64,000 nucleotides of DNA from Verrucomicrobiales bacterium (lineage in GTDB: Bacteria > Verrucomicrobiota > Verrucomicrobiia > Methylacidiphilales > JAAUTS01): NCBI GenBank assembly GCA_031256975.1, contig JAIRPN010000018.1, forward strand, positions 807-64,806. Reading direction: 5' to 3'. The translations under genes and the position numbers were made by a program. Below are positions 1-64,000 of the stretch, piece after piece (positions within the stretch are counted from its first letter, which is position 1; every line of letters begins with the position of its first letter). The notes under the pieces are model-generated. The model made no database searches and was not told where the DNA came from. It saw nothing but the letters and a program-made list of their open reading frames with translations.

Positions 1-363
1 CAGGGGAGACCATTGCAGGGGCAGCCAGCCGATTTCCTTGTGCAGATTCTGGTAAACCCGCGCGCCGAGACGGTCGGCAATCAGTTGCGCTCCCAGGCAA
101 ACGCCGATGACTTTCTTTTTCAGCCGGATGGCCTCGGAGATGAAGCCCTTTTCCTCGATCAGCCAGGGATAAACGCGATGTTCGTAAATGTTCATCGGCC
201 CGCCCATGATGACCAGCCAGTCGATGTCGTCGACCGACGGGGCATGCTCCCCGGCGAACCAGCGGGTGACGCTGATGGTGAAGCCCTGCCGTTCCGCCCA
301 CACGGCGATGTGTTCCGCGTTTTCGAACGGAACGTGTTGGAAAATATGCAACCGTTTTCTCAT
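1..363 (-). CDS. class I glutamine amidotransferase-like protein (N-terminal part; gene runs off the window start)
   Basis: Own translation of the minus strand from ATG at 363: MRKRLHIFQHVPFENAEHIAVWAERQGF..WLVIMGGPMNIYE..KKVIGVCLGAQLIADRLG. This has the GATase1-type nucleophile elbow G-x-C-x-G. It is absent from the ORF track because it is truncated by the window edge. Confidence 0.7.
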   Translation of the reverse strand, partial: MRKRLHIFQHVPFENAEHIAVWAERQGFTISVTRWFAGEHAPSVDDIDWLVIMGGPMNIYEHRVYPWLIEEKGFISEAIRLKKKVIGVCLGAQLIADRLGARVYQNLHKEIGWLPLQWSPL

Positions 364-490
364 GCACCCCTTATTCAAGCAACTGGCGAGCCAGATTTAA
401 GAGAAGTGAAGGGTGAAAAGTGAGATGAAGGCTGCAAATACACGCCACCGGTGCTTATTTCACTTTTCACTCTTCAGAATTCACCCTTCT

Positions 491-2146
491 TTAGCGTTTG
501 GTCACATGGGTCAGGATGCGGATCAGCGCCGGCAGCAGTTGCTTCTTGCGGGACACCACGCCGCGCAGTTCGAACAGGTTGGGTTCGAGGCCGGGATAGT
601 CGATGGCCTCGAGCAATTGGTTGTTGCCGACCGCCAGCAACAAACTGTTGTGGGTGTTGATGTCGGTGACCAGCAGGCAGGCGAAATCGAGTTTCTCCTG
701 CGCGACCAGTTCGTTGAGCGATTTTTTCAGGTCGGCCTTGCGGCTTTCGAAGTGGATGAAGTCCAGTTCCTCGACCTGCGAGACGGCGATCTTCCAGCCG
801 TTTTCCATGTACTCCTTGCAGTCGGCGTTGAGCGCGTCGGCGGAGCTGAGAGTCTGCAACGGCGAACCGACCGAGAACATTTTCTCGGCGAACTGGTTGA
901 TGCTGACCTTGGCCAGCTGGCCGAGCCATTGCAGGATGTCGCGGTCGACCACGGTGCTGGTGGGCGAGCTCAGATTGAGCGTGTCGGAAATAATTCCCGC
1001 CGCGAGGCACAGGGCGGTGCCGGGTTCCGGTTGCAAATTGTGCTGGCGGAAGGCGCGGGCGACCAGCGTCGAGGTGGAGCCAACCGTGTCGTTGGTGAAG
1101 CGGATTGGCTCGCGGGTGACCAGGTCGCCGCCGAGGCGGTGGTGGTCGATGACCTCGAGGATTTCGGCTTCCTCGACGCCGGTGACCGCCTGCGAGAATT
1201 CGTTGTGGTCGACCAGGATCAGCTTGGTGCGCGGCGGGTTGACCAGGTCGGACTTGGAGAACACGCCGACCAGTTTGCCCTCGTCGCTGATCACCGGGAA
1301 CAGGTCCTGGTGGATGGCCTGCACGGCCTCGCGGATTTCGTCGACCAGCGCATGCTCGGAGAAGCGCACGCAGTCGCGGTTGATGACGTGGCTGACCTGC
1401 TGTGCGCACTTGATCAGCAGCGTGGTCGAGGCGGTGTCGAGCGGCGAGGAAATGACCGTGACTTTTTTCTCTCGTGCCAATGCCAGCAGCGAAGCGTCGA
1501 GCTCGTAAGAGCCGGTCACCACGATGCAGCGCGCGCCGTAGTTGATGGCGGGCTTTTGCGCGGTCGGTCGGTTGCCGACCACGATCAGCAGCTGTTCCGG
1601 CGGGTAATCGTGCAGCCGTTCCTCGAACGAGCGGGCACTCATGGCGGCGACCGACATCAGCAGGGTCTCCTCGCTGTCGATATTCACCGCGTTGAGGAAA
1701 TGCCCGCCGAGCACCTGGCGGATGTGTTCCAGCGTGGTGGTGACGGCGCGGGCCTCGTCGCCGGTGCGGTTGCCCGGCAGCAGCAGGCCGAGCGCCTTTT
1801 GGAAGGAAAGCAGGCCGACCATCTCGCGGTTGCCGTTCAGCACCGGCATGCTGCGGAGTCCCTGCTCGCGCATGCGGTCGAACACCTGCAGCAGGGATTC
1901 GCTTTCGTTGGCGCTGATGACGTGGCGGTGGCAGATGTATTCGGCGGTGGGACGCACGTCCAGCAGCAGCCTGGGGGCCTCGACCTTGGCCTCGTTCAGG
2001 GCGAACAGGGTGCGGGCGTTGGGTTCGCCGCAGCAGGCGGCGACGGCATCGGGATGATAGGTGTTTTTCAGGAATTCCGCGTAGCCGATGGCGGAGCAAA
2101 TGGCGTCAGTGTCGGGATTTTTGTGACCGATAACGTAAGTGGGCAT
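491..2146 (-). CDS. CBS-domain-containing family II (DHH/DHHA2) inorganic pyrophosphatase
   Basis: ORF 491..2206. The likely start is the internal ATG at 2146 (MPTYVIGHKNPDTDAICSAIGYAEF, DHH N-terminus). The middle region is CBS/DRTGG-like. C-terminal motifs ILVDHNE and VIDHHRLG are present. Confidence 0.85.
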   Translation of the reverse strand: MPTYVIGHKNPDTDAICSAIGYAEFLKNTYHPDAVAACCGEPNARTLFALNEAKVEAPRLLLDVRPTAEYICHRHVISANESESLLQVFDRMREQGLRSMPVLNGNREMVGLLSFQKALGLLLPGNRTGDEARAVTTTLEHIRQVLGGHFLNAVNIDSEETLLMSVAAMSARSFEERLHDYPPEQLLIVVGNRPTAQKPAINYGARCIVVTGSYELDASLLALAREKKVTVISSPLDTASTTLLIKCAQQVSHVINRDCVRFSEHALVDEIREAVQAIHQDLFPVISDEGKLVGVFSKSDLVNPPRTKLILVDHNEFSQAVTGVEEAEILEVIDHHRLGGDLVTREPIRFTNDTVGSTSTLVARAFRQHNLQPEPGTALCLAAGIISDTLNLSSPTSTVVDRDILQWLGQLAKVSINQFAEKMFSVGSPLQTLSSADALNADCKEYMENGWKIAVSQVEELDFIHFESRKADLKKSLNELVAQEKLDFACLLVTDINTHNSLLLAVGNNQLLEAIDYPGLEPNLFELRGVVSRKKQLLPALIRILTHVTKR

Positions 2147-2201
2147 AATTAGTTGGGGAAAATTAGCACAAAACGGCGCTAATGGTGAAGTTTTAAAGTG
2201 G

Positions 2202-10031: not shown

Positions 10032-11006
10032 TTAAGTGAAAAACGGGCGGTCTTTCACCTGTTCAAATTCCTTGTCCAGCAAAGCGGTGTCTTTCGCGGT
10101 TAGCGGGTTGTTCAGGACTTCGCGGATGTTTTCAACGGCGAAGGAGAAGCTTTTGAAATCGCCGTGGGGGATGATGAGGTCGGCACCCATGTTAAAGGTG
10201 TGTTTGAGGGCGCTAATGGCGAGGTCGCGGTTGGTGCTGCTGTCGATGGGTTTGCACCAAGCCTTGGGGTAGGCGGAGTTTTTGCGTTCGTCCTCGTTCA
10301 ACCAGGCGCGGTGGGTGAGCGGTTTGATGGCGAGGATGCCCATGCCGCGTTTCCCGGCTTCGGCGCTAATGGCGACGCCCATTCGGTTGTGACGGGTCAT
10401 CATCCAGTTGAGCGGAAACATGACGGTGTCGAAATCGTACAAGGCGAGCGCCTTGAGGGCGATTTCCTCGTTGTGGGCGCTAAAGCCGAGCTTGCGGACG
10501 CGGCCGTCCTGTTTGAGTTTGGTCATGAGCGTCATCACGCCGCCGGGCCCGAAGGCTTGGTCGAGATCGCTTTGCTGGTGGAGATTGTGCAACTGGTAGA
10601 CGTCGAAATGGCCGGTGTGCAGGAGTTCGAGCGACTTGGTGAATTCGGTTTCGGCTTTGTCGGCAAGCCGTTGTCCGGTTTTGCAGGCGAGGAAGATTTT
10701 GTCGCGGTGGGGCTTCAGCGAGTTGCCGAGTTTTTCCTGCGCGTCGCCGTAGCTGGGGGCGACGTCGAAATAATTGATGCCGTGATCGACGGCCCACGAG
10801 ACGTAGTGGTCGGAGGCCGGCTGGCCGTCGTTCATCGAGACGATGCCGCCGTAGACGACGGGGAAAATCTCAAAGCCGGTTTTGCCGAGCGTGCGTTTGG
10901 GTTTGACTACAGGTTCACTGTTAGCGTCGAGGGCGCGGGCGATTGGATTGACAGCGCCAATGGCGGCGATGGTTGCGGTTTTTTGGATGAAATTCCGGCG
11001 GTTCAT
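10032..11006 (-). CDS. aldo/keto reductase with twin-arginine (Tat) signal
   Basis: The N-terminus MNRRNFIQKTATIAAIGAV is Tat-like. The body is AKR-like (GINYFDVAPSYGD, LGFSAHN). Confidence 0.85.
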   Translation of the reverse strand: MNRRNFIQKTATIAAIGAVNPIARALDANSEPVVKPKRTLGKTGFEIFPVVYGGIVSMNDGQPASDHYVSWAVDHGINYFDVAPSYGDAQEKLGNSLKPHRDKIFLACKTGQRLADKAETEFTKSLELLHTGHFDVYQLHNLHQQSDLDQAFGPGGVMTLMTKLKQDGRVRKLGFSAHNEEIALKALALYDFDTVMFPLNWMMTRHNRMGVAISAEAGKRGMGILAIKPLTHRAWLNEDERKNSAYPKAWCKPIDSSTNRDLAISALKHTFNMGADLIIPHGDFKSFSFAVENIREVLNNPLTAKDTALLDKEFEQVKDRPFFT

Positions 11007-12784
11007 GGTTCCAGTTTAATCCCGTTGTCAAAGCCGCTGCCGTTGACCGTGGCGGTCGCGGTTAGCGGGGATTTGAAGTAGGGGCCGGGGTTGGAGTAGG
11101 TGTTGCCGCTAATGGTGAGCTTGATGCAGAAGTCGAACCAGAACAGGGAGCCGGGGTCGATGCCAATGCCGCTGCCGTTGGTGCTTGGGTGGGTCATGGG
11201 TTGCAGGAAACGGTTGTTGCGAATGGTGACATCGGAGGCACTGGTGATGACGATATTGGGGCCGTCGTTGTTGATGAAGGTGTTGTCCTTGATGAGGATG
11301 TTGCGATGTCCGCCCGTGGACGAGGGGACAAAACGGCCGTATTCGTAGGCGTTGACGGTTAGCGCCCCGGCCTGGCTGTTGCCGGGATGCGACCAATAGT
11401 TGCAACGCTCGATAGTGTTGCGGCGGATGATCAAATTGCGCGCGTAGTCGGATTCGTTCCACACGCCCATTTCCGGTGCGACGACAATGCCGCCCATGGA
11501 GCTGCCCTGGATGGTGCAATCCTCAATCAAACCGTCGCCCGCCTTGATCAGCATGCCGCGGGCGCGGTTGTTGCGGATGGTGCAATGACGGATGACAAAA
11601 CCGTTGCCCAGCATGTCACCATTAGCGACCAGCCAGCCGGACTTGGCGGGTACGGATTGGTCAAGGGTGAGGCGGAAGAATTTCGGGTGGGCGAAATCCT
11701 GGAACAGGCGCAGAGCCTTTGGCGGCGGCGTGGTTAGTTGGTAATCGGGCAGGGGTTCGATATTGGTGACTTTGGCCTCGGCCACGGAGATGCCGCGTTC
11801 GTCGTTGAAGCGCATGCGGTCGCCGGTCTGGCAAAAGGGCGGGTAACGAACCTCGACAATGATTTGGTTGCTAGCGGATTCCATCGTTAGCGCGTAACTG
11901 CCGTGGATCGGCACGCCGTCGTCATTCATGCCCTCAAAATGACAATCCTCCAAAGTAGGTCCCTGCCGGACGCCGCTGCTGTGGAAGGCGTCGGCATTGC
12001 TGGCTATCAGCGGTTGTTCGGTTGCGCCTGTTGGTTTGCCGCCGTAGGTGACGGTATAGCGGTAAGTGTTGCCGCCAAGGCCGCCGTGTTCGTGCACGCA
12101 GAATCCGGCGCCGCCGCTAATGGTGAGGTCGGTGATCTTCATGTTGTGACAGTCGTTAATGTCGATGTCGGTACGGACCAGGCCCCGCCAGGCGACTGCG
12201 GCGCCGACAATCCATCCGACCTGACTGTTGACGGCGCGGGCTTGATGCACGCGGAAGGTGTCGGGGCCAAGTCGTTCAACCGAGCTTGCTTCGCCTTTGT
12301 CATCGAGCCATTGGCGGTTCTGCGGGTTGAATAAATTCAGGACGATCTTGGGGAAAAATTGCGGGTTGTCGAAGTCGGCGGGATAACCGCGATCTACTTG
12401 CACGTCGATGGTTTTGCCGTCGGCGCTAATGGCGAGGATTTTTCCCTGCGAAAACGGCGCGGTTTCGCGGAGCAGCGTCACGCCGTGCAAGGTGACATTG
12501 TCGCATTGTTTAAAACCGATCGAGCTTTTGTCGCGAGAGACAAATACCAAGGTAACGTTAGCGGCCTCGATGCTGAAATTTTTCAGGCCGCTAAAGTTGA
12601 GGTGATGACCGGATTTGCCGTCGGCGCTGAGGTGGTAGGTGCCGGGCGGGATGGTAACGCCTGACTGGTGTTTTTGCCAGGCTTGGTCAATGAGTTGCTG
12701 GAGAGAAGGTTGGTCATTGGCATCGGCTCCGCGCAAGGTGACGGTTAGCGTCAGCAGGATGATTATGACCGTGTTGCGGATCAT
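11003..12784 (-). CDS. secreted right-handed parallel beta-helix repeat protein
   Basis: Signal peptide is present. Repeated N/G/I-rich beta-helix turns occur (IRHCTIRNNRARGMLI, IIRRNTIERC, ILIKDNTFINNDGPNIVI). It overlaps both neighbours by 4 nt, which suggests an operon. Confidence 0.75.
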   Translation of the reverse strand: MIRNTVIIILLTLTVTLRGADANDQPSLQQLIDQAWQKHQSGVTIPPGTYHLSADGKSGHHLNFSGLKNFSIEAANVTLVFVSRDKSSIGFKQCDNVTLHGVTLLRETAPFSQGKILAISADGKTIDVQVDRGYPADFDNPQFFPKIVLNLFNPQNRQWLDDKGEASSVERLGPDTFRVHQARAVNSQVGWIVGAAVAWRGLVRTDIDINDCHNMKITDLTISGGAGFCVHEHGGLGGNTYRYTVTYGGKPTGATEQPLIASNADAFHSSGVRQGPTLEDCHFEGMNDDGVPIHGSYALTMESASNQIIVEVRYPPFCQTGDRMRFNDERGISVAEAKVTNIEPLPDYQLTTPPPKALRLFQDFAHPKFFRLTLDQSVPAKSGWLVANGDMLGNGFVIRHCTIRNNRARGMLIKAGDGLIEDCTIQGSSMGGIVVAPEMGVWNESDYARNLIIRRNTIERCNYWSHPGNSQAGALTVNAYEYGRFVPSSTGGHRNILIKDNTFINNDGPNIVITSASDVTIRNNRFLQPMTHPSTNGSGIGIDPGSLFWFDFCIKLTISGNTYSNPGPYFKSPLTATATVNGSGFDNGIKLEP

Positions 12785-13770
12785 GCGGTTTTGCTGAACA
12801 GCGCCTTGATGGTATCGAAATACGGGCGGTGGTTTTTGGCGAAACGGAGGTGATAGTTCTTCTCGCTGCCTGCGTCGTGGAAGCTGAGCTGGTCGTAGAG
12901 CATGCGGGTTTCGGCGCTAACGGTGAGCCCGGTGCTGTCGAGCAGCAAGGGGGTTTTGCCGGGGACGCTAATGGCGAGCCTGTTGGGGTTGACCTGCACG
13001 AGGTAGGCGCGGCGGTTGCGCGGCAGCTTGGGGATTTTTCCGGTGACCACCGGCACCGACCATTCGATGTTTTCGTTGTTGGCGAGCAGTTGTTCCAGCT
13101 TGTGCTTGATGTCGGGCTTGATGATGAGCGGCAGGGCGATGATATGGTCGGGTTCGACCACCACGGTTTTCAATTTCAGCACGATGAAGCGCGCGCTGTG
13201 GTAGATGTGGCGGAAAATTTTCGGCGCCAGCCACAGGAACAGCGCCAGGAAAATAACCAGGATTACCAGCATCAGCACCGGGTTGACGCAGAGCAGCCAG
13301 ACGCCGGCGACCACCAGCACGTTCTCGATCAGGCTGACGATGGAGTTGGAGACGGGTTCCGGCGAGGTGTTGACCAGCAGCCGCGTGCCGGCTTTGGCGC
13401 TGTGGGTGGTGAGGGAAAAAGCGCCGCAGAGCAAGCCGCTAATGACCAGGGTGGTGGTGGAGAAGTTGCCAACCCCGAGCGCGGCGATGCCGAGGAAGGC
13501 GGCGCCGACCGGGCGGATCACGGTGTGTACCGCGTCCCAAAGGGAGTCGAACCACGGGCATTTGTCGGCGATGAACTCGACCAGCGCCAGCACGCCGCTA
13601 ATGACCAGCACCGCGGGATGGGCGAGGACTTGCAGGTGTTCGAGGCCCGGCGCGGTGTGCAGCCAGCCGGTGTTGAGGATGACGCTAACGGCGAAGACCG
13701 TGAGGTAAAGGCTGAGGCCGGAGAGGGCGGAGAGTCCGAGCGCGGCGGAAATCAGGGCGAGTTCGGTCAT
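12781..13770 (-). CDS. DUF4126-like integral membrane protein with C-terminal soluble extension
   Basis: Start chosen at MTELALISAALGLSALSGL. There are multiple TM helices, the motif FIADKCPWFDSLWD, and a roughly 140-aa non-membrane tail. Confidence 0.65.
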   Translation of the reverse strand: MTELALISAALGLSALSGLSLYLTVFAVSVILNTGWLHTAPGLEHLQVLAHPAVLVISGVLALVEFIADKCPWFDSLWDAVHTVIRPVGAAFLGIAALGVGNFSTTTLVISGLLCGAFSLTTHSAKAGTRLLVNTSPEPVSNSIVSLIENVLVVAGVWLLCVNPVLMLVILVIFLALFLWLAPKIFRHIYHSARFIVLKLKTVVVEPDHIIALPLIIKPDIKHKLEQLLANNENIEWSVPVVTGKIPKLPRNRRAYLVQVNPNRLAISVPGKTPLLLDSTGLTVSAETRMLYDQLSFHDAGSEKNYHLRFAKNHRPYFDTIKALFSKTA

Positions 13771-13961
13771 GGAGGGAATTGTGAAGAGTGAATGGTGAAA
13801 AGTGAAGTCGCAATTACACGCGGCGGCAAATGGCCTGAACAACGGCGAAGGGAAAAGTAAGCCCGGTTCCCGCGAAAACGGTGTCTTGGTTCACGTTTCA
13901 CCATGCACTGTCCAAATATCTGCTTTGCCTTTCACCCCAATTACTTCATAGTGAACGTCTC

Positions 13962-14819: not shown

Positions 14820-16093
14820 AAATTCTAGTAGTCGGCAGTGGCGGCCGTGAACACGCCATCGGTTGGGCCTTGGCCAAGGACGAGCGGGTGACGAAATTAT
14901 GGTTTGCCCCCGGCAACGCCGGAACCGATTCACTGGGCGAAAACCTGCCGCTAAAGGCGACGGATGTCGCCGGAATTAAATCATGGTGCGAAAAGCAGCG
15001 TCCCGAACTGGTGGTGGTGGGGCCGGAAGCACCATTGTGTGCGGGCTTGGTGGACGAATTGTCGGCCCTTGGCATCAAGGCGTTCGGCCCGAATAAGTCC
15101 GGCGCGCGATTGGAAGCGAGCAAGATTTTCACCAAGGATTTGCTGGTCAAGGCGGGGATTCCGACCGCCATTAGCGCCCGTTTCACCGATCTCGCCGAGG
15201 CGCGGGCTTATTGCGCGTCGCAGCCCTATCCGTTGGTCATCAAGGCCGACGGCCTGGCGGCGGGCAAGGGCGTGATCATCGCTTCGTCATTAGCGGAGGC
15301 CGACGAGGCGCTCGACCAGATCATGGCGAAGAAAGTGTTCGGCACCTCGGGCGACAGCGTGTTGATCGAGGAATTTTTGCAAGGCCAGGAAGCGTCGATC
15401 CACGCGGTGACCGACGGCACGGATTATGTGTTGATGCCCAGTTCACAGGATCACAAGCGCATCCGTGACAACGACGAAGGTCCGAACACCGGCGGCATGG
15501 GCGCCTACGCTCCCGCGCCGGTCGTGACCGATTCGCTGTTGGCGACCGTTGAGGAGCAGGTGATCCGCCCGATCATTAGCGTGCTGAAATCCGAGGGCAT
15601 TGATTACCAGGGCGTGTTGTACGCCGGATTGATGCTGACCCCGCAGGGGCCGAAGGTGTTGGAATTCAACTGCCGGTTCGGCGACCCGGAAACCGAAGTG
15701 TTGCTGCCGCTGTTGCAAACGCCGTTGCTGGACTTGCTGTTGGCGACCGTGGATCGCGGCATTGGCAAATTGAATTTTGAATTGAAAAAAGACAGCGCCA
15801 TGACCGTGGTGTTGGCGGCGGAGGGTTATCCCGAGAACCCGATGATGGGGGCGGTAATCCACGGGCTGGTTGCCGCGCCGACGATGTTATTCCATGCCGG
15901 GACCACGCGGCGCGACGACGGCAAGGTCGTGGTTAGCGGCGGCCGGGTGCTGGCGGCGACAGGGGTCGGACACGATTTGTATGATGCGCGGCGCCAGGCT
16001 TACAAGATTGCCGCGGACATCCGTTTCGACGGCAAGCAGTACCGCTTGGACATCGGCAAGAAAGCGCTGGATTTGATCGAGAGCGGCAAATAA
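14816..16093 (+). CDS. purD: phosphoribosylamine--glycine ligase
   Basis: MKILVVGSGGREHAIGWAL.., ATP-grasp core and C-terminal ..VSGGRVLAATG. The full-length match to PurD is recognisable by eye. Confidence 0.95.
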   Translation: MKILVVGSGGREHAIGWALAKDERVTKLWFAPGNAGTDSLGENLPLKATDVAGIKSWCEKQRPELVVVGPEAPLCAGLVDELSALGIKAFGPNKSGARLEASKIFTKDLLVKAGIPTAISARFTDLAEARAYCASQPYPLVIKADGLAAGKGVIIASSLAEADEALDQIMAKKVFGTSGDSVLIEEFLQGQEASIHAVTDGTDYVLMPSSQDHKRIRDNDEGPNTGGMGAYAPAPVVTDSLLATVEEQVIRPIISVLKSEGIDYQGVLYAGLMLTPQGPKVLEFNCRFGDPETEVLLPLLQTPLLDLLLATVDRGIGKLNFELKKDSAMTVVLAAEGYPENPMMGAVIHGLVAAPTMLFHAGTTRRDDGKVVVSGGRVLAATGVGHDLYDARRQAYKIAADIRFDGKQYRLDIGKKALDLIESGK

Positions 16094-37379: not shown

Positions 37380-37460
<81 letters not shown>

Positions 37461-42051: not shown

Positions 42052-42109
42052 CAAGGGAAACCGATTTACAATTTAAACGATTGCTTGATTACGCTTTCTT
42101 GCGGCGCAA

Positions 42110-43032: not shown

Positions 43033-43054
43033 CAAGGGAAATTAAATGGGAGTT

Positions 43055-43774: not shown

Positions 43775-43861
43775 AACTATTTTCCCTTGTTTTCTTAAAT
43801 GGCGGGATAAATAAAACATGGTGCAACAACAATCAGATGACCGCCGTGTTACATTTTCATG
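43775..43861 (-). promoter_or_regulatory. conserved leader/promoter of PEP-CTERM gene 2
   Basis: The minus strand reads aaaatgtaacacggcGGTCATCTGATTGTtgttgcacc..atcCCGCCATTTAAgaaaacaAGGGAaaatagttATG. GG-N8-TTG has sigma-54-like spacing. Confidence 0.5.
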
Positions 43862-43908
43862 TTTGGTTCAGATTTTGTGTGAAATATTCAAAAATCTGCT
43901 CCTTAAAT

Positions 43909-43941
43909 AAAAACTCCCTCGCGAAGCGTGAGGGAGTTTTT
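43909..43941. terminator. bidirectional rho-independent terminator
   Basis: The sequence is aaaaactccctc-gcgaagcgt-gagggagttttt. An A-run and a T-run flank a 7-bp GC-rich stem. Confidence 0.7.
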
Positions 43942-43961
43942 ATTGCAATGTAGATTTGTGT

Positions 43962-44744: not shown

Positions 44745-44830
44745 GACTACTCTCCCAGTTAGTTTAAATGGCGAAACGGAGTACAACACCATTCAGGTAC
44801 AATTCAGTGACCGGCAAGTGACAATTTATG
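44745..44830 (-). promoter_or_regulatory. leader of PEP-CTERM gene 3 sharing the same spaced elements
   Basis: The minus strand reads attgtcacttgccGGTCACTGAATTGTacc..tttCGCCATTTAAactaactGGGAGagtagtcATG. GGTCA lies 68 nt from the ATG, exactly as in gene 2. Confidence 0.4.
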
Positions 44831-44855
44831 CGGCGGTGAATAAGTCCGGATAAGG

Positions 44856-45608: not shown

Positions 45609-45613
45609 GATAT

Positions 45614-48535: not shown

Positions 48536-49314
48536 GGGTTGAGGTTGACGCGCAGGCGGAACAGCTGCGCGTTTTGTGATTTTACGGTTTCCATCGTATT
48601 GGAATTGGTCCAGTCCTGGGCGCTGGTGAATTTCTGCGCGGTGTCGTAGTTGTAGGCGCGCAGGCTGATGTCAAAGAAGGCGGGCTGGGTGTGGTAATCG
48701 CCGTCGTCGAGCTGGATCGGGTCAGCGTCGCCCGTGTAGCGCTGGATGAAGAAGTCGATGACGTTGCGGGCGATGATTTCGTCGCCGCCGGTGCTGCGGG
48801 TGGCGTTGGCGGATGGGAACAGCAGGGCGTTGGGGTCGCTCATCAGCGCGAGCAGTCCCCCGGTGGCGTTGCTCCAGGTGGTGTTGCTGCTCTTGAAGTA
48901 GCGGTGCAGGTTGTAGGCGCCGCGGTTGATGCCGTTGCTGGGACTGGTGTAGGCGATGTAGTAGCCCACGGCGCAAAGGTCGCTGTTGCTGAGCGTGGGA
49001 TCCTGGGCGTCGCTGCCGGAAGTGGTGATGAAGAAGATTTTATCACCATGTTCCGGCGGGGCGAAGCTGCCGTCTCCGTTATTGTCGATTGCCGGGTTTT
49101 TGTAGAAGGGAATGCGCGAGGTGATCCTGGCGTTTTGCAGGTCGTGGCTGAGGTAATACAGCGCAGCCCGCGCCTCGCTGTAGGCGTTGACTTTGCTTTC
49201 GCTGCTTTTCCAGGTGTGGGTGGCTTGCGAAAAAAAGGAGAACAACAGCAGGATCAGGATGGCCAGGACGCTGGTGGCAACCAGCAGTTCGATCAGGGTG
49301 AAACCGGTTTGCAT
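48532..49314 (-). CDS. prepilin-type N-terminal cleavage/methylation domain protein (GspJ-position pseudopilin)
   Basis: ATG 49314 gives MQTGFTLIELLVATSVLAILILLLF (G/FTLIE). Confidence 0.75.
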   Translation of the reverse strand: MQTGFTLIELLVATSVLAILILLLFSFFSQATHTWKSSESKVNAYSEARAALYYLSHDLQNARITSRIPFYKNPAIDNNGDGSFAPPEHGDKIFFITTSGSDAQDPTLSNSDLCAVGYYIAYTSPSNGINRGAYNLHRYFKSSNTTWSNATGGLLALMSDPNALLFPSANATRSTGGDEIIARNVIDFFIQRYTGDADPIQLDDGDYHTQPAFFDISLRAYNYDTAQKFTSAQDWTNSNTMETVKSQNAQLFRLRVNLNP

Positions 49315-49333
49315 GGCGGAAGACTGTGTTTCT

Positions 49334-49412
49334 GGTGATGGGAATATGGGGTTCCCGTGAGGGGAACAACATGTTTTGGTGACGGGAATGCGGGGTTCCC
49401 GTGAGGGGAACA
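49334..49412 (-). repeat. tandem 44-nt-period repeat, each unit carrying a hairpin, within the pseudopilin operon
   Basis: ggtgatgggaatatggggttcccgtgaggggaaca (49334..49368) is repeated as ggtgacgggaatgcggggttcccgtgaggggaaca (49378..49412). Each unit contains GTTCCC-N5-GGGAAC. Confidence 0.8.
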
Positions 49413-49474
49413 CGTGCTTCCAAGGACGGGATTCCAGCCTGGTGAAATGATTGTACGAAAGAAAATGACCGGAT

Positions 49475-50056
49475 TCATAACTCGGGAACGATCAGGGTGA
49501 CGAACACTTGTTTTTTGCGGTCGACAGGTTTGGCGGCGGCGGGCCATTCGACGGTGAGGGTGACGCGGGAGTAGTTGTAGGCGGTGGCGGGGTTGTTGTC
49601 GGGGTTGTAAGCGGCGCTGAGGCGGCTGATATAAAAGGCGGTGGCGACGCTGGTGCCGTTGTTGTAATCGGCGGCGCCGTTGAGGGTGCGCAGGGGGGTG
49701 CCGTTGTTGTCAAAGACGATATACAAGGGGTTCGCGTCATTGGTGTCGGCAAGGTTGAATTGGGTGGAGCGGGAGCTGGTGACCAGGGCGGTGTTGGCTT
49801 GCTCGGAGGTGACCTGCGAGAGGATTTCACGGTTGTTGCGGTTGCCGGTGTCGGCACGGGACTGGATTTCCGCCAGCAGGGACTGGGCGATGAAGGTGGC
49901 GCGGGTGTCGCTCTTGCTGTCGCTGGCGGTATTGAGCGCCAAGGGGAACAGCATCAGGATGGCCACCAGGGCATAGGTCAGGATGGAGAGGGCGAGAACG
50001 ACTTCGATCAGACTGAATCCATGACGGCCGGTGGGTGCGGAACTGCGGGCGGTCAT
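49475..50056 (-). CDS. prepilin-type N-terminal cleavage/methylation domain protein (GspI-position pseudopilin)
   Basis: MTARSSAPTGRHGFSLIEVVLALSILTYALVAIL (G/FSLIE). Confidence 0.75.
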   Translation of the reverse strand: MTARSSAPTGRHGFSLIEVVLALSILTYALVAILMLFPLALNTASDSKSDTRATFIAQSLLAEIQSRADTGNRNNREILSQVTSEQANTALVTSSRSTQFNLADTNDANPLYIVFDNNGTPLRTLNGAADYNNGTSVATAFYISRLSAAYNPDNNPATAYNYSRVTLTVEWPAAAKPVDRKKQVFVTLIVPEL

Positions 50057-50058
50057 AA

Positions 50059-50697
50059 TTACTGTAGCGTGGCGAGGTCCATTTCCGCGCGCCCGGTGAA
50101 GCGCTGGAAGGTGATGCGGTCGAAGTAGGTGGAGTTCTTGGTCATCAGCGTGTCGCGGTTGTTGGCGAACACGCCTTCATAAAGATACAGGCAGAGGTTT
50201 GCGGGATTCGACGGGGTCCTGATGGCGCCGGTGGGGGTATAGACGATGGACGGCAGGGAGGCGCCGGAATTGAGCTGCGGCAGGTTGCCGGAGGGAATCG
50301 AAAGCACGGCGGTGCCGTCCTGGAACAGCGAGGTGCAGTCGCGCTTGAAGGAAATATTCTTGGGCAGGAACATCCACTTGGTCACGGCGACGTATTGCAC
50401 CCCGGCGGGGTCGCTGTCCACGCGGTCGCGGAAGATAATATAGGCGTGATAGGGGAAGTCGGTGCCGAGCTGGCTGAGCGACTGGTCGGCAAAGCCGACG
50501 TAGGCATTGACGCCGTTGGTGAGGGCGGCGATGCGCGCCTGCTCGAAGGCGTTGAGCAAGGTGTTGACCGCGCCCTGGCGGCCGGTGGAGTTCGACATGG
50601 AATTGATGGCGGGCAGGGCGGTGGCCATCAGGATGGCCATGACCGACACGACAGTCAGCGTTTCCAGCAGAGTGAAACCTTGTTTGTTTTTATTCAT
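50059..50697 (-). CDS. prepilin-type N-terminal cleavage/methylation domain protein (GspH/FimT-position pseudopilin)
   Basis: ATG 50697 gives MNKNKQGFTLLETLTVVSVMAILMA (G/FTLLE). Confidence 0.75.
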   Translation of the reverse strand: MNKNKQGFTLLETLTVVSVMAILMATALPAINSMSNSTGRQGAVNTLLNAFEQARIAALTNGVNAYVGFADQSLSQLGTDFPYHAYIIFRDRVDSDPAGVQYVAVTKWMFLPKNISFKRDCTSLFQDGTAVLSIPSGNLPQLNSGASLPSIVYTPTGAIRTPSNPANLCLYLYEGVFANNRDTLMTKNSTYFDRITFQRFTGRAEMDLATLQ

Positions 50698-50885
50698 GGG
50701 CAGCAATGTGACACGCCCGTGTTCCGTTCGTATCAACGTCGTGTAACAAGTCGGTGTCATTTTCGCCGCCAATATGAGAATAGCGGCAATGCTTTCGTGT
50801 GCTTTTCCCTTTCGCGGATTTCGCTTTGCAGAATCGTGACGGAATGGACACGGGGCTGTCGCAATCGGCCGGCAGATTTTCCAGA

Positions 50886-53648
50886 ATGAAGGGAGGTTGT
50901 TGCAAAGGAGCGCTGGGGCTCGTCGTGTTGTCAGGTCTGCTGGCGATGGCGACGTGTTGCCGGGCGCAACAGCAGCCCGCGGCGATGACCGCCCACGACA
51001 CTCTGGAAGCCGGTTTCATGGCGTTCCGGACTGCCGATTACAAGAAGGCGGAGTCGGTGCTCAATGATTTCCTGCGCGATTACGGCAAGAGCGCCGAGGC
51101 CAAGCAGTATTTGTCGAAGGTGCTGGAACTGCTGTCTTTTTCGCAAATCCGGCTGGGCAAATATGACGACGCCTTGGAAACCATTGCCCGTTATCTGCAG
51201 GAATACCCGGAAGGTGACGAGGCGGAGTCGCTGTCCTTCTGGCAGGGCATCTCCCTGCTGCGGGTGGAGAAATTTGACGAATCGAAAAGCGCGCTGGAAG
51301 CCTTCCTGAAGAAATATCCGCGCAGCAGCAAGGCGGACGATGCGCGTTACGCGATCGGCCTCGACCTGTTGAAGAACGGCAAGTATCGCGAGGGAGCGGA
51401 TTATTTCGTGAACCTGGCGCCGCAACTGAAACCGGACATGGCTTATGAGGCATTGGTGCTCGCGTTGTACGGTTACGTGGAAGGCGACGACCGCGACCGC
51501 GCGCTGGAACTGGTCCTGAAGATCGACCCGCTCAGCCCGCAGGCCAACAAATTGGCGGTGTATCATTTGCTGGCGTTGAACCTGGGCAGCCGCCTGTTGC
51601 AGAAGGGCGAGGACCGCAAGTCGCTGCTGGCCTTGCAACGGGTCTGGGGCAAGGACAAGATTTTGTCGCGGCAGCAACAGAAGCTGGCCGAGTTGCAGGC
51701 CAGGCAGCAGCAACAGGCCAATGACAAGAACGCCGATCTTTACCAGCAAAGCCGCCTGGCGGAGGTGATCGGGGAAATCCAGGGCGAGATCAAGCAGCTG
51801 AACAAGATTCCCGATTATGACACCGCGCTGCAATTTCGCATCGCCCAAGCCTATATCCATCTCAATCGCTACCGCGAGTCCTATCTGGTGTTGCGGCAGA
51901 TGGCCAATAAGTTGCCGGACAGCGAGATGCTGATGCAGGCGGAATACACCATGGTCTATTGCCTGGTGTACATGGAGCGCTGGGACGAAGTGGTGAAAGC
52001 GGCGGCGGAATTTGAAAAGCGGTTCCCGAAATCCTCGCAACTGGCGCTGGTGTTGTACCTGCGCGGCGAATCCTGCCGCCAGATGGAGGACTACGCGGGC
52101 GCCTATGAAGTGTTCTCACGCATCGGCAAGGATTTTCCCGACAGCCAGTATGCCGAGCGTTGCGCCTTTCTGGCGGGTTATGTGTTGCTGATGCAGGACA
52201 GGAATCCCGAGGCGACCGCGCAATTCCAGGATTACATCAAGAAATACCCGCAGGGGGTGTTGCTGGAGAAGGCTTATTACTGGCTGGCGATGTCGTACCA
52301 TTATAACAAGGATTACGAGCAGAGCCGCGCGGCGCAGAAAAGTTACCTCGATCATTACCCCAAGGGCCAATATGTGGCGGACAGCAATTTCCGCCGCGCG
52401 CAGGCCCTCTTCAACCAGAAGAATTTTGTCGACGCCTACAAGGAGCTGGAAAACTGCCTGAAGCAGTTTCCGAAATACGAGCGGCTGGACGAGTTGAAAA
52501 CGCAACTGGGCGACTGTTATTTTGCGCTGGGGGAAATCGACCGCGGGCTGGCGGTGTATCAAAGCACCTCGCTGAAGGATCCGGGCCTGTACGATTACGC
52601 GGTGTTCCGCGAGGGACAGGCCTACAAGACCCGCGAGGAGTACGACAAGCTGCTGGCGCTGTTCCAGAAGTTTCTCACCGATAGGCCCAATAGCCCGCGC
52701 CTGACCGAGGCTTTGTCGCAGATCGCGTGGTATTACCGTTCCAAGGGTGATGCCGGCAAGGCGGCGGAGATTTACTGGCAGGCGGTCCGCGACCACGGTG
52801 ATGATCCGGAAGCTGCTGGCGTGGAGGATATGCTGCGCACGCTGGCGAAGTATTACCGCCAGCCGGATGAAAAACAGAAGTTTGTCATCCGCCTGCAGTC
52901 GATGGCGGAGCAGGAGGCGGCCAAGCGCCCAACCCTGACGGCGCGAGTGCACTGGATGCTGGCGCAACTGGCACAGAAGGAAAACCCGGCCTCGGCGGAC
53001 CAGCAGTTGCTGGCGATCAAGCAAAACCTTGATTTGCGCAAGCTGAGTCCCTTGCTGCTGGTTGATGTTGGCGATGCGGCGTTGCGCCTTGGCAGGACGG
53101 ATGACGCGAAGGAATGTTACCGGACGCTGATTTCGTGGTATCCGACCTCGATGTTGAAGGATCGCGGCTACGTGGGCATGGGCTTGGTGGCCAGGGCGGC
53201 GGGTAACAACGACGAGGCCTTGTCGTACTTCGCGTTGTTCGACAAGAATGATTTCCAGTCGATGGAGAAGCCGCGGGTGCTGCGCGCCAAGGCGGATATT
53301 TATCTGGACCAGAACAAGCCGGAGCTGGCCTTGGAACAATTGGAGACTTTGCTGGCCATGCCGATCACCAAGGGCCGCAATGCGGTGGAAGCCTTGTACC
53401 AGATCGGCAGCATCCGCCTGTCGCTGGGCGATGCGAAGAAGGCGATACCTTATTTCCAGCGCATCTATGTGATGTATTCGCGCTGGAGCGATTACACCGC
53501 CAAGGCTTACTGGAGCAGCGGGCAGGCCTTTGAAAAATTGAACATGACCGAGGAAGCGCGCAAGACCTACCAGGAATTCATCGGCCAGGACAATCTGAAA
53601 CAAACGGCGGAATACGCCAGGGCACAGGAGCGCTTGAAGGCTTTATGA
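50886..53648 (+). CDS. secreted giant TPR-repeat protein (920 aa from ATG 50886)
   Basis: The internal ATG gives the signal peptide MKGGCCKGALGLVVLSGLLAMATCCRA. TPR-like repeats run throughout (YPKG.., YAERCAFLAGY.., AYYWLAMSYH..). Confidence 0.8.
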   Translation: MKGGCCKGALGLVVLSGLLAMATCCRAQQQPAAMTAHDTLEAGFMAFRTADYKKAESVLNDFLRDYGKSAEAKQYLSKVLELLSFSQIRLGKYDDALETIARYLQEYPEGDEAESLSFWQGISLLRVEKFDESKSALEAFLKKYPRSSKADDARYAIGLDLLKNGKYREGADYFVNLAPQLKPDMAYEALVLALYGYVEGDDRDRALELVLKIDPLSPQANKLAVYHLLALNLGSRLLQKGEDRKSLLALQRVWGKDKILSRQQQKLAELQARQQQQANDKNADLYQQSRLAEVIGEIQGEIKQLNKIPDYDTALQFRIAQAYIHLNRYRESYLVLRQMANKLPDSEMLMQAEYTMVYCLVYMERWDEVVKAAAEFEKRFPKSSQLALVLYLRGESCRQMEDYAGAYEVFSRIGKDFPDSQYAERCAFLAGYVLLMQDRNPEATAQFQDYIKKYPQGVLLEKAYYWLAMSYHYNKDYEQSRAAQKSYLDHYPKGQYVADSNFRRAQALFNQKNFVDAYKELENCLKQFPKYERLDELKTQLGDCYFALGEIDRGLAVYQSTSLKDPGLYDYAVFREGQAYKTREEYDKLLALFQKFLTDRPNSPRLTEALSQIAWYYRSKGDAGKAAEIYWQAVRDHGDDPEAAGVEDMLRTLAKYYRQPDEKQKFVIRLQSMAEQEAAKRPTLTARVHWMLAQLAQKENPASADQQLLAIKQNLDLRKLSPLLLVDVGDAALRLGRTDDAKECYRTLISWYPTSMLKDRGYVGMGLVARAAGNNDEALSYFALFDKNDFQSMEKPRVLRAKADIYLDQNKPELALEQLETLLAMPITKGRNAVEALYQIGSIRLSLGDAKKAIPYFQRIYVMYSRWSDYTAKAYWSSGQAFEKLNMTEEARKTYQEFIGQDNLKQTAEYARAQERLKAL

Positions 53649-54580
53649 ACGCGCGTTGTCTGGTCATTGGCGGATTGTTGCTGGGTGGCTGCCTGTCATT
53701 GCGGGCGGATGTGATCACGCTCAAGAGCGGACAGAATGTGGAGGGCAAAATTGCCGGGACCGATGGCAAGACGCTGACGGTGGAGTCGGACGTGGCGGGA
53801 CAGCGTGCGCAGGTGAAGTATCCGCTGGCATTGGTCGACAAGCTGGTGTTTGTCGATGATGACGCCACCAAAACCCTGCTTGCCAGCAATGACCCGAAAG
53901 ATCTTCCGGAGCTGGCGAAATTATGGGAGTCGCGGCAGGTCTTTCTCGGCCAGCCGGAAAGCAACGCCGGTGCGGTGGCATTGGCCTACGCAAGGTTGCT
54001 GCTGAAGAGCGGCGGTGACTTGAACCAGGTGCTGGCCCTTAGCGCCGAGGTGGAATCGGGGGACTGGCAGGTTGCGAGAAAACCCGAGGCGACCCGCCTG
54101 CGACTGGCGGTCTTGGTGAAGAGCGGCAAATCCGACCAGGCTTTGGCCGAGGCGGAGAAGATCGGCAGTGCAGCCGGTGCGGACGATGACACCCTGCTGC
54201 AAGCGCAGGTGCAGGCGCGTTTTACCGGTGCGGAAGTGGCCTGGGCCAAATTGCAACAACTGGAACGCGATTGGCCGAAGTGGGCGCTCATGCCCGACAA
54301 GCGGGTCGAGCGTCAGCATTTGCTGGACAAAACCCTGGATGGATTTTTGTATCCGGTGGTGTTCCAGAGCCAGCTCAGGAACCTTTGCGCCGAGGGATTG
54401 TATCGCAGCGCCGAGATCGAGTGCCTGACCGGCAGCCTGGCGAACGCGGCGGTCCACGTGCAGGAAATCATCACTTATTACGCCAACGACGAGTTCAAGG
54501 CCAAGGCGGAAAATTTAATCAAACAATACCAACTCACCCTCCCGGCAAAGGGCGGGGACAACAAGGGGAAGAACTCATGA
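53645..54580 (+). CDS. putative lipoprotein, hypothetical
   Basis: MNARCLVIGGLLLGGCLS has a lipobox LGGC. It overlaps both neighbours by 4 nt. Confidence 0.55.
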   Translation: MNARCLVIGGLLLGGCLSLRADVITLKSGQNVEGKIAGTDGKTLTVESDVAGQRAQVKYPLALVDKLVFVDDDATKTLLASNDPKDLPELAKLWESRQVFLGQPESNAGAVALAYARLLLKSGGDLNQVLALSAEVESGDWQVARKPEATRLRLAVLVKSGKSDQALAEAEKIGSAAGADDDTLLQAQVQARFTGAEVAWAKLQQLERDWPKWALMPDKRVERQHLLDKTLDGFLYPVVFQSQLRNLCAEGLYRSAEIECLTGSLANAAVHVQEIITYYANDEFKAKAENLIKQYQLTLPAKGGDNKGKNS

Positions 54581-62728: not shown

Positions 62729-63788
62729 GGAACAGCAGGGTTTCGGCGGTCAGGCCGGGGCCGAAGGACATGGCGCAACCGGACTGTCCGGCGCGGGCGT
62801 TAGCGAGCAGTTGTTGCAGGACAAACATCACGGTGGCGGAGGACATGTTGCCGAATTGTCGCAGCACGGAGCGCGAGGCAGCCAGGTTTTCCGGCGCTAA
62901 TGACAGGCCTTGTTCCACCGCGTCGAGAATGGAGCGTCCGCCCGGATGCACCGCCCACAGGTCGATGGCGGTTGCGGCTTGCCCGCCGGTGATTTCACGC
63001 TTCTTGCTTTTCAGTGAACGGTTGATCACGCCGGGCACTTGTCCGGACAGCAGCATGTCAAAGCCGAGTCCGCCGATTTTCCAGGTGATCAACTCGCGGG
63101 TGCCTGGAATTTGCACGGCGTGAAAGTTATCGAGCGCAAAACCGCTTGGCTGTGCACTGACCAGACTGGCCGAGCAACCGTCGCCGAAAATCAGGAACGA
63201 CAGCATTTGTTCAAGATCCTGCGTTTCCTGCAAATGCAGGGTGCAAAGTTCGAGGTTCAGCACCAGCACACAGGCGTCGGGTTGCGAACGCACCACATGG
63301 CGGGCGAATTTCAGCGCGTTGATCGCGGCATAACAACCCATGAAGCCGATCATGGTGCGTTCCACTGCGGGGTTGAGTCCGAGGTGGTCCACGATTTCAA
63401 AGTCCAGCCCCGGTGCGTAGAGTCCGGTGCAGGTGGTGACGACCACATGGCTGATGCGACGGAGCTCATCCGCGCTGAGGGCCAGTCTTTCCAAAGTGCG
63501 GTGGGCCAGCGGCGGAGCCAGCTGCTCGAATTTTTTCATCCGCCAGGCGGTGTCGGGAAAATTGCCGCGCAGGTAGAACGGCCCGGCATCCACCCAGAAG
63601 CCTTCGGCGGTGGTGACGGCCTGCAGGCAGGAGAAGCGGTGCCGGATTTCCGCCTTGCGGGCCATGCGGTGGAAGAGTTTGCGCGCGGTTTCGTTTTCCA
63701 GTGAACGTGCGGCATACTCAATGAAGGAGTTGTGCACGTCATGATCGGGAACGGCGGTGGCGATGCGGTTAAGGTGCGCGACAGTCAT
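62718..63788 (-). CDS. type III polyketide synthase (chalcone/stilbene synthase family; SrsA position)
   Basis: The catalytic triad context is present: VVTTCTGLYAPG (Cys), WAVHPGGRSILD (His) and FGNMSSATV (Asn). Confidence 0.9.
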   Translation of the reverse strand: MTVAHLNRIATAVPDHDVHNSFIEYAARSLENETARKLFHRMARKAEIRHRFSCLQAVTTAEGFWVDAGPFYLRGNFPDTAWRMKKFEQLAPPLAHRTLERLALSADELRRISHVVVTTCTGLYAPGLDFEIVDHLGLNPAVERTMIGFMGCYAAINALKFARHVVRSQPDACVLVLNLELCTLHLQETQDLEQMLSFLIFGDGCSASLVSAQPSGFALDNFHAVQIPGTRELITWKIGGLGFDMLLSGQVPGVINRSLKSKKREITGGQAATAIDLWAVHPGGRSILDAVEQGLSLAPENLAASRSVLRQFGNMSSATVMFVLQQLLANARAGQSGCAMSFGPGLTAETLLFHAV

Positions 63789-63859
63789 GGGACTCCGGCC
63801 GTTAGTGCGGGCATGTGTTCAAAATATAAACAAGCTGTGCCGCTTTGCAAAATGCAGGG

Positions 63860-64000
63860 TTATAGTTTGCAGATTGCCAGGGTGGCGAGGACGAAGGGCA
63901 GATAAAAAATCGAGGCCAGGAACAATTTCCGCGCGCTTGCGGGCGAGGGGTTGAAGGCGAAGCCAAGGGAGGCAAGCAGATAGAGTGCGTTGCCGATGAG
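63860..64000 (-). CDS. C-terminal fragment of a polytopic membrane protein (possibly UbiA-family prenyltransferase / heme O synthase-like)
   Basis: Own translation: ..LIGNALYLLASLGFAFNPSPASARKLFLASIFYLPFVLATLAICKL-stop (TAA at 63860..63862). The gene continues past the window end. The family guess is weak. Confidence 0.3.
   Translation of the reverse strand, partial: LIGNALYLLASLGFAFNPSPASARKLFLASIFYLPFVLATLAICKL

Follow-up and report, generated by a model that had tools for sequence, protein, structure and literature searches.

The window analyzed here, a whole stretch of 64,000 nucleotides from a Verrucomicrobiales chromosome (contig JAIRPN010000018.1; GC 57%, ~93% coding), is strewn with copies of a DNA word whose core reads CGCTAA on one strand and TTAGCG on the other. 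The word is a lineage-specific signal of ~12-14 bp, written at the level of DNA and made up of a strong core, the heptamer CGCT(A/G)A(C/Y), which is preceded at two bases' distance by a G and followed by a weaker GGYGA tail. It is confined to one clade of relatives, where it occurs in two dialects that replace each other at orthologous sites. The pattern is of a type so far known only from neisserial DNA uptake sequences (DUS) and pasteurellacean uptake signal sequences (USS); a word of such kind has gone unreported in Verrucomicrobiota.

Counts, reading frames, and anatomy of the word

With 55 copies of CGCTAA and 54 of TTAGCG, the window holds 109 cores (1.7/kb, with a median distance of 266 bp between neighboring copies over positions 1..64000), compared with 29.5 expected from base composition and 17-25 under Markov models of order 1-3; by z-score, no hexamer is more deviant at orders 2 and 3. 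An earlier, sequence-only reading of the window had logged about 100 cores in roughly equal orientations and had judged them over-represented, and both statements are borne out. The balance of orientations persists despite a positive GC skew in all 2-kb bins but one. A motif of the Chi or FtsK-orienting polar sequence (KOPS) type is ruled out by the same lack of strand skew (55:54).

An excess of this kind could arise from codon usage, from recurrent dipeptides, or from a dispersed repeat, but we regard this explanation as refuted and leave it with practically no probability. The codon-aware null models rest on our own 56-gene model of the window, built from frame-specific GC content. When synonymous codons are shuffled within each gene, so that every protein and each gene's codon usage are retained, the genic copies number 26.0 ± 4.7 (maximum 39) versus 95 observed, a ratio of 3.7; when codon order is shuffled, they number 16.8 ± 4.2, so the amino acid sequences lift the expectation, if only slightly. 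Under the synonymous null, CGCTAA ranks first among all canonical hexamers (z = 13.4), the second is GCTAAC, which overlaps it, and the remaining hexamers have observed/expected ratios below about 2.4. A true codon artefact looks different. CCAGCA/TGCTGG, which serves as a control, is the second most over-represented hexamer under the simple models (138 vs 54) and is also high in three of the relatives described below (L083, L085, and L093); it reflects a codon-context effect, with 93 of its 137 genic copies (68%) in the single frame xTG CTG G and a codon-aware ratio of only 1.5. The copies of CGCTAA also lack the properties of repetitive extragenic palindromic elements or miniature inverted-repeat transposable elements: 87% are intragenic, the flanks are uninformative beyond -2 to +12, and no longer dispersed repeat containing the word was found in the window.

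The genic copies occupy all four frames that lack an in-frame stop (xTT AGC G 36, xCG CTA A 32, xxC GCT AA 13, and TTA GCG 12). Two further copies form the stop codon CGC TAA, 12 are intergenic, and 2 lie at gene edges. Relative to genes, 47 copies are sense and 48 antisense, in agreement with the earlier claim that copies lie within genes on either strand and in several frames. The encoded peptides are unrelated between frames (SPLA/WLLA; LAISA/LTISG; PLTAK/TLTVT; GANDE/AANGQ), and the same flanking DNA consensus surrounds the word in every open frame and in the 12 intergenic copies. Because the same DNA recurs in four frames and in diverse peptides, and because over half of the CTA codons of the window lie within the word (32 of 60; for TTA codons, 12 of 98), the word dictates codon choice and not the reverse. 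It is sparse in conserved proteins (SHMT 1.4/kb, BipA 1.1/kb, CstA 0.5/kb, and NDH-2 0/kb) and reaches 3-6 copies/kb in less constrained ones. Stop codons overlap the word at the three places that had been picked out by eye (491, 32919, and 39608):

491..496, minus strand: the word gives the stop (CGC TAA) of the pyrophosphatase gene 491-2206
32916-32921, plus strand: the word gives a stop codon
39607-39612: the TAG within TTAGCG is the stop of gene 37550-39610

Alignment of the 109 copies yields the consensus G-N-CGCTAA-Y-S-R-Y-G-A, with nothing conserved outside positions -2 to +12. Position -2 is G in 75 copies, and the tail shows graded preferences: C 50 and T 43 at +7, G 62 and C 31 at +8, G 57 and A 34 at +9, C 64 and T 33 at +10, G 73 at +11, and A 73 at +12. 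The tail [CT][GC][GA][CT]G[AG] follows 44 of the 109 cores (40%) versus 1.7% of all positions; the extension that had been noticed by eye is thus real, although the estimate that about half of the copies carry it was slightly generous, since 44 have the tail and 37 of them end in GA. These 44 degenerate 12-mers compare with 0.43 in order-3 simulations and 6.55 in order-5 simulations, which retain the hexamer counts, and within genes 36 are found versus 1.65 ± 1.23 after synonymous shuffling. Because the tail by itself shows no enrichment, the word is best described as a weaker extension attached to a strong heptamer core. Of the 18 cores with a single mismatch, the tail is shared only by the transition neighbors CGCCAA (13 of 144) and CGCTGA (7 of 67), a restriction that fits gradual drive. 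Every extended copy listed by the sequence-only reading is present (at 10211, 12424, 12966, 11107, 12115, 12915, 21610, 32916, 35308, 7312, 13683, 41639-41644, and 35718-35723), and some full 12-mers recur exactly:

10211..10222, plus strand: full 12-mer CGCTAATGGCGA, the commonest, with 6 exact copies in the window
12915..12926, plus strand: full 12-mer CGCTAACGGTGA, with 5 exact copies in the window; its sole difference from the CGCTGACGGTGA of relatives is core position 5
41633..41644, minus strand: full 12-mer that reads TTCGCCGTTAGCG on the plus strand

Refinement of a position weight matrix by expectation maximization was given up, as it drifted to the codon-favored CGCCAA background (48 null hits at threshold), and explicit tests of core variants were used instead. 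Methylation and deamination acting on the hexamer alone are ruled out, since generic CGCTGA in the window is neither depleted nor context-biased: its count (67 vs 55-63) matches the expectation, and its flanks show no consensus. The sequence-only reading had named three outcomes that would speak for a trivial origin, namely a codon-aware ratio near 1, a single peptide or a single dispersed repeat family behind the copies, and the lack of a consensus beyond the hexamer. The ratio is 3.7, neither a peptide nor a repeat family of this kind was found, and the consensus extends on both sides of the core; the central proposal of an orientation-independent, genome-wide signal at the level of DNA, and not a codon or peptide artefact, is well supported.

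Two dialects in one clade of relatives

DNA identical to that of the window is on record solely from metagenome assemblies, which makes the organism an uncultured member of Verrucomicrobiota. By PurD, its best matches with names are metagenome-assembled genomes (MAGs) labelled Verrucomicrobiales bacterium, at 78-82% identity. The close relatives described here were obtained through PurD homologues; two scans of metagenome contigs with the S41 peptidase found no close relatives. The negative controls were loci from the PurD-alignment scan at identities of 52% or less, 1.27 Mb from 80 unrelated species that include Akkermansia and other Verrucomicrobiota. In these 80 genomes CGCTAA occurs at expectation (272 vs 285) and the degenerate 12-mer only 3 times, corresponding to 0.002-0.011/kb versus 0.7-2.0/kb in motif-bearing genomes (1.2-2.0/kb in the relatives of the window).

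The motif-bearing genomes divide into an A dialect, CGCTAAYGGCGA, in the window, L093, and L082, and a G dialect, CGCTGACGGTGA, in L083, L085, and L089. The closest of them, L093 (98% identical in PurD and 97% in nucleotide sequence), has 19 cores in 7.5 kb, and L082 (PurD 89%) has 50 cores in 12.2 kb versus 6 expected, with the same logo as the window. L083 (PurD 82%), L085 (79%), and L089 (78%) have nearly no CGCTAA; their top or near-top hexamer is CGCTGA, with 109 cores in 14.4 kb, 60 in 15.7 kb, and 77 in 13.0 kb, respectively (expected 23-29). The logo of the G dialect is G-N-CGCTGA-C-G-R-T-G-A, and each G-dialect locus (13-16 kb) holds 9-10 exact copies of CGCTGACGGTGA. The synonymous-shuffle null is surpassed 3-7-fold in four relatives, with the same frames favored. 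Besides core position 5 (A vs G), the dialects differ at positions 7 (Y vs C, p = 8e-9) and 10 (C vs T, p = 3e-18). The sister lineages L094, L095, L090, L091, and L092 (PurD identity 64-73%) have neither dialect, and in a neighbor-joining tree of two proteins (PurD and S41 peptidase) the motif-bearing genomes are monophyletic, with each dialect forming its own subclade. A search of related genomes had been proposed from the sequence; it has revealed a word restricted to one clade and split into two phylogenetically coherent dialects.

The G dialect also shows arrangements that were not seen in the A dialect, namely direct tandems CGCTGACGCTGA (7 copies in L083) and a 15-nt near-palindrome CGCTGACGGTCAGCG with inverted cores 9 nt apart (7 cases); both preserve the preferred frames. 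A scan of viral contigs for CGCTGACGGTGA and then for CGCTGAC returned, among the matches listed, no contig near host density, and is uninformative on the phages of this clade.

Orthologous sites were compared in codon-threaded alignments. At one and the same codon position, the window and L082 have the A form where L083, L085, or L089 has the G form. Such swaps may be synonymous (CTA/CTG, GTT/GTC, ATT/ATC) or may change the protein (GCT AAC vs GCT GAC, that is, Asn vs Asp), and at one Leu-Ala-(Glu/Asp) site the A lineage reads TTA GCG GAG and the G lineage CTC GCT GAC, so that each bears its own word in opposite orientation. Examples, with alignment columns, are:

14949..14954, plus strand: PurD dialect-swap site, column 133; GCC GCT AAA GGC in the window and L082, GCC GCT GAC GGT GA in L083
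15933..15938, minus strand: synonymous swap in PurD, column 1117; GTT AGC in the window and L082, GTC AGC in L083, L085, and L089; the outgroup L090 is without the word
16643..16648, plus strand: S41 peptidase site, column 559; CGCTAA in the window and L082, CGCTGACGG in L083
10364..10369, plus strand: within-species polymorphism at the dialect position; CGCTAATGGCGA in the window, CGCTGATGGCGA in L093, with similar A/G differences at 17565 and 17964

Many word sites are lineage-specific. L082 bears A-form copies where all other genomes read TTGGCG, so the A form was still being created after the dialects had split. Between the window and L093, 18 sites are common, 4 are found only in the window, and 1 only in L093, and 3 of the 5 core differences are A/G at position 5. 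G-form 12-mers are kept in A-dialect genomes (7 in the window, 3 in L093, and 0 in L082), whereas the G-dialect loci have 0 A-forms and 73 G-forms. Because the residual G-forms occur only in A-dialect genomes, this distribution weakly suggests that the G form is ancestral; the tree cannot polarize the switch, each dialect being monophyletic.

These residual G-forms, the polymorphisms at position 5, and the fact that the switch is a G:C to A:T transition would also be expected if the A form were a fossil, the remains, no longer read, of an ancestral CGCTGAC word in which deamination turns C into T (TCAGCG to TTAGCG). This we consider very unlikely. L082 has gained A-forms where every other lineage is without the word (TTGGCG to TTAGCG), the A dialect is shifted at positions 7 and 10 as well, generic CGCTGA hexamers are undepleted in the window, and simple decay would not halt at one exact substitution over about 100 sites. 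Because plain decay, a codon or peptide artefact, a dispersed repeat, Chi or KOPS motifs, and methylation-deamination of the hexamer all fail their tests, what remains is a sequence-specific reader that changed its preference between sister lineages, together with a process that spreads matches.

One such process would act within the cell: a methyltransferase or a very-short-patch-type mismatch endonuclease recognizing ~6-7 bp plus context would convert near-matches, writing a word akin to the highly iterated palindrome (HIP1) of cyanobacteria, and an altered target-recognition domain would yield the second dialect. Most of the information resides in a 6-7-mer core that is not palindromic, as is typical of the methyltransferase sites of Type IIG, Type III, and bacteriophage exclusion (BREX)-class systems, and the tail alone is unenriched. 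Gains by transitions from CGCCAA and CGCTGA are compatible with conversion of near-matches, and G-forms left in A-dialect genomes, with no A-forms in G-dialect loci, fit an ongoing conversion of G to A. A single-base switch of specificity (G to A) is usual for target-recognition domains, and the 4-15 cores/kb in relatives are easier to reach by drive in situ. Even so, we judge this process unlikely to be the source of the word. HIP1 and Dcm/Vsr words are palindromic, the enrichment produced by very-short-patch repair is modest, and we know of no precedent for an about 100-fold enrichment of an asymmetric 12-mer. No near-miss word is depleted (the generic CGCTGA count given above is at expectation), no methyltransferase or Vsr gene lies within the window, and a uniform process in situ leaves unexplained a region at 48.5-53.6 kb that lacks the word despite normal codon usage and is motif-poor in a second species.

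Dense zones, inverted pairs, and a motif desert

The density of the word varies along the window. Its densest stretch spans three adjacent genes:

10032..13842: 20 copies in three genes, encoding an aldo-keto reductase (5.1/kb), a beta-helix protein (5.6/kb), and a DUF4126 protein (4.7/kb)

The gene for the right-handed beta-helix protein (11003-12784, 593 aa), with 10 copies, is the densest gene in the window. It is precisely absent from the 97%-identical strain L093, in which the aldo-keto reductase and DUF4126 genes overlap by 4 nt, the same overlap that each has with the beta-helix gene in the window. That it is dense in the word though absent from L093 implies a long residence in an A-dialect genome.

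The intergenic density of the word is about twice the genic density, a difference that is not significant (p about 0.07), and most intergenic copies lie just 3' of stop codons. The sequence-only reading had described inverted pairs just after genes as terminator-like and as a hallmark of the signal. Three close pairs do exist, but as terminator-like structures they are few and weak and no hallmark here:

21610..21643: inverted pair, cores 21610/21638, directly after the stop of gene 21016-21609, with a T-run behind it; the hairpin, at -10.8 kcal/mol, does not surpass shuffled sequence
31501..31526: two 12-mers tail to tail between divergent genes, cores 31501/31521, spacing 20; hairpin -14.2 kcal/mol, z = -1.8
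34691..34716: second tail-to-tail pair, cores 34691/34711, spacing 20; hairpin -18.5 kcal/mol, z = -3.0
42006..42060: terminator-like hairpin 3' of a PEP-CTERM gene, with an exact TTAGCG at 42043 and a one-mismatch CGCCAA as its arms

The paralogous hairpin at 42987-43041 is without the word. No preferred spacing or helical phasing was found beyond multiples of 3 (tandem spacing of 6, and inverted spacing of 9 in the G dialect), which follow from the preferred reading frames.

One large region is free of the word:

42049..54038: motif desert; over 12 kb, neither dialect has a copy, with about 20 expected at the window mean

The desert contains PEP-CTERM genes, a pilin-like cassette of the Verru_Chthon type, and a gene for a 949-aa tetratricopeptide repeat (TPR) protein. 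Codon usage is atypical at 42.1-48.5 kb and typical at 48.5-53.6 kb. An ortholog of the TPR gene, 88% identical, lies on the 5.2-kb contig L216 from another sample, whose DNA is 83.5% identical to window positions 49475-54558 (for comparison, L082 is only 78.3% identical across the PurD region). L216 has one CGCTAA in 5.2 kb and six CGCTGA/TCAGCG cores, which at about 1.2/kb is the background level. The TPR and pilin-like part of the desert, at least 5 kb, is therefore motif-poor in two species, so recent import into the window's lineage alone is insufficient as a cause and a uniform mutational process in situ explains the desert poorly. Acquired and diversifying regions are described as depleted of DUS (bioRxiv 10.1101/2025.10.24.684340); the possible counterpart here is one 12-kb desert in a single window, part atypical and part typical in codon usage, with the typical part, a diversifying region of multi-copy cassettes, motif-poor in L216.

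This regional structure, with dense zones on the one hand and, on the other, a desert that is motif-poor in L216 as well in its TPR and pilin-like part, would also fit domains of wanted and excluded binding, if selection rather than drive maintained the word as a dense array of sites bound by a protein abundant on the chromosome. The protein could be nucleoid-associated, could act in segregation or in the loading of condensin, or could read the word as a "self" marker on behalf of a defense system; its specificity would have co-evolved with the sites in the two subclades, and an asymmetric motif of ~12-14 bp with graded information and a strand-symmetric distribution would suit it. This array strikes us as quite unlikely. 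Sites of the parS, matS, SlmA, and Noc kind are known in tens of copies per genome, whereas the present word recurs every 130-600 bp; selection would have difficulty in upholding thousands of sites that are each weak; the core columns show no extra conservation between close strains; and a coordinated genome-wide switch of dialect is hard to achieve through selection acting site by site.

Several features of the desert and its borders are observations in their own right:

37222-37456: two tandem tRNA-Met (CAT) genes at the left edge of a motif-sparse region (only 5 copies at 36.3-54.0 kb), which may be an island boundary
42110-44792: three tandem PEP-CTERM genes with strongly atypical codon usage (GC content at third codon positions 0.40-0.67); their 5' leaders (42774-42862/43780-43868) and 3' hairpins (42006-42060/42987-43041) are duplicated at 80-89% identity, which points to a recent local duplication
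44856-50772, minus strand: three prepilin-like genes (N_methyl motif) with a 973-aa and a 250-aa open reading frame, wholly within the desert; the cluster matches the NCBIfam "Verru_Chthon cassette proteins A-D" weakly and at the N terminus only
49330-49434: tandem array whose units, GGTTCCCGTGAGGGGAACA, form hairpins and repeat in a 22-nt register (44-nt unit); it covers the 5' end of the pilin-like gene 48532-49413 and extends upstream of this gene

The remainder of the window encodes ordinary chromosomal genes, among them a CBS/DRTGG-type pyrophosphatase, a cardiolipin synthase-like phospholipase D protein, PurD, an S41 peptidase, an LMWPc-RpiB-SHMT fusion, NDH-2, BipA, CstA, and ExbBD, in addition to the PEP-CTERM proteins, the prepilin-like cassette, and the two tRNA-Met genes. 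The triple fusion and the repeats that are unrelated to the word are as follows:

17384-19552: fusion of low-molecular-weight phosphotyrosine phosphatase, RpiB, and serine hydroxymethyltransferase, beside PurD and the S41 peptidase; conserved in L082, L090, L091, L092, L094, and L095, and called as separate short genes in L093, which may reflect a frameshift or an assembly error
401-423, 459-489, and 13783-13805, with a weaker copy at 3673-3702: purine-rich element GAAGAGTGAAnGGTGAAAAGTGA of ~23-30 nt, twice direct and once inverted, none expected by chance; copies are intergenic or near the 5' ends of minus-strand genes, and the pair at 401-489 forms a long inverted repeat
2202-2324: 29-nt inverted repeat whose arms are 90% complementary and stand 65 nt apart, located between the pyrophosphatase gene and the minus-strand gene that follows

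Relatives have repeats of their own that are likewise unrelated to the word: a GGGATT tandem array in L092, GGAGAAGGCTTC 8-9 times in L089, and the AT-rich TATTGA(A/T)TATTG in L085.

Candidate readers and known systems

Among the possible combinations of a reader and a spreading process, we lean, tentatively and short of even confidence, toward a DUS/USS-like signal for uptake or recognition of self DNA, kept by molecular drive. Sequence-specific drive would have written the word across the chromosome of one Verrucomicrobiales clade and would still maintain it. A surface DNA receptor of the transformation machinery would favor fragments with the word, as for neisserial DUS and pasteurellacean USS; homologous recombination of the preferentially imported conspecific DNA would spread mutations that give better matches; and copies would accumulate wherever protein function permits. 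A shift in receptor preference (G to A at position 5, C to Y at position 7, and T to C at position 10), followed by the genome of the window, L093, and L082, would have produced the second dialect. In this proposal, a DNA-uptake receptor as the reader, natural transformability, and recombination as the spreading force are what we infer from the pattern of the word.

The likeness to DUS and USS that had been suggested from the window gains a strong parallel in the clade restriction and the dialects, and several other observations weigh against an uptake signal. Copies are clustered and not evenly spaced (variance/mean 2.7 in 2-kb bins). Only 12-14 of the 109 are intergenic, with only 3-4 inverted pairs and modest hairpins. 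The G-dialect core density of 4-7.6/kb, and 14.6/kb in one gene, is above any described for DUS or USS. Among the genes of the window, none was identified as a competence gene or as coding for a ComP-like receptor; its only pilin-like proteins, encoded at 48532-50772 inside the desert, resemble the Verru_Chthon cassette and pseudopilin models at the N-terminal methylation motif and nowhere else. Core columns are no better conserved than others between the window and L093 (3.6% change vs 3.35% on average). The data from relatives are fragments of 5-16 kb, mostly around one syntenic locus. In the portion of the literature available to us, nothing relevant was found on a DNA uptake sequence in Verrucomicrobia or on the motif strings, and no report of natural competence for the phylum.

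The word may alternatively be the footprint not of an uptake signal but of a so far unknown, lineage-specific machinery for sequence-directed conversion or "self-marking", an outcome that we hold to be improbable. Such machinery would have to write an asymmetric 12-mer at 4-15 cores/kb, override codons and alter amino acids, and have a target switchable by one to three bases with the whole genome following.

The consequences differ between these possibilities. The word has in common with DUS and USS a population-genetic signature, that is, an about 100-fold enrichment of a 12-mer, frame independence, clade restriction, and dialect swaps at orthologous sites. If it is an uptake signal, such specificity arose at least a third time, in a distant phylum; k-mer statistics alone could then be used to screen lineages known only from MAGs, and the dialects would show where gene flow in environmental populations meets a barrier. 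If it is not, another process drives an asymmetric word above DUS density, which bears on the origin of HIP1-type words. Either way, the word distorts codon usage and alters protein sequence in this clade, with over half of CTA codons inside it, and it is a simple marker by which these genomes can be binned and foreign DNA in them recognized.

The only well-understood systems that bear this signature are the uptake sequences of Neisseriaceae and Pasteurellaceae. Sequence-tagged recognition of self DNA, by DUS and USS, is described for only two proteobacterial families in a survey from 2025 that covers 177 genomes (bioRxiv 10.1101/2025.10.24.684340). The present word is like neisserial DUS (Frye et al., 2013, PMC3630211; bioRxiv 10.1101/2025.10.24.684340) in being a non-palindromic word of ~12 nt at roughly 1/kb or more, on both strands, in several genic frames and in intergenic copies, restricted to a single clade, and divided into dialects that differ at 1-3 positions and track phylogeny; some inverted pairs follow genes, and the lack of the word in at least one atypical or diversifying region may be a further likeness. 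It differs in that its host belongs to Verrucomicrobiota and not to Betaproteobacteria, and in that its sequence is unrelated to GCCGTCTGAA or to the described CTG-core dialects (in the best register, 6 of 12 bases agree with ATGCCGTCTGAA, a match without significance). About half of true DUS and USS lie in terminators (bioRxiv 10.1101/2025.10.24.684340), whereas 87% of the present copies are intragenic and terminator pairs are rare and weak; the core density is several-fold higher in some relatives, and no ComP receptor was identified in the window. With both DUS and USS the word shares a lower number of copies in constrained proteins and the enrichment of one-mismatch transition neighbors.

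The pasteurellacean USS (Hin AAGTGCGGT and Apl ACAAGCGGT) resemble it in that weaker preferences flank a strong core (7-9 nt), two sister subclades each have a dialect of their own, and most copies are genic and shape codon and amino acid choice. Their core is unrelated, however, they have AT-rich flanking tracts where nothing is informative beyond +12 here, and they are evenly spaced where the present word is clustered. Cyanobacterial HIP1 (GCGATCGC) is also a short word at about 1/kb or more that occupies all genic frames, overrides codon usage, varies between lineages, and has a suspected link to methylation or repair, but it is a perfectly palindromic octamer, in contrast to an asymmetric word with its tail on one side. 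Finally, Chi and KOPS or architecture imparting sequences (AIMS) are likewise over-represented chromosomal words read by a DNA-processing machine; they are strongly co-oriented with replication, whereas the present word is balanced between strands and far exceeds them in fold-enrichment and density.

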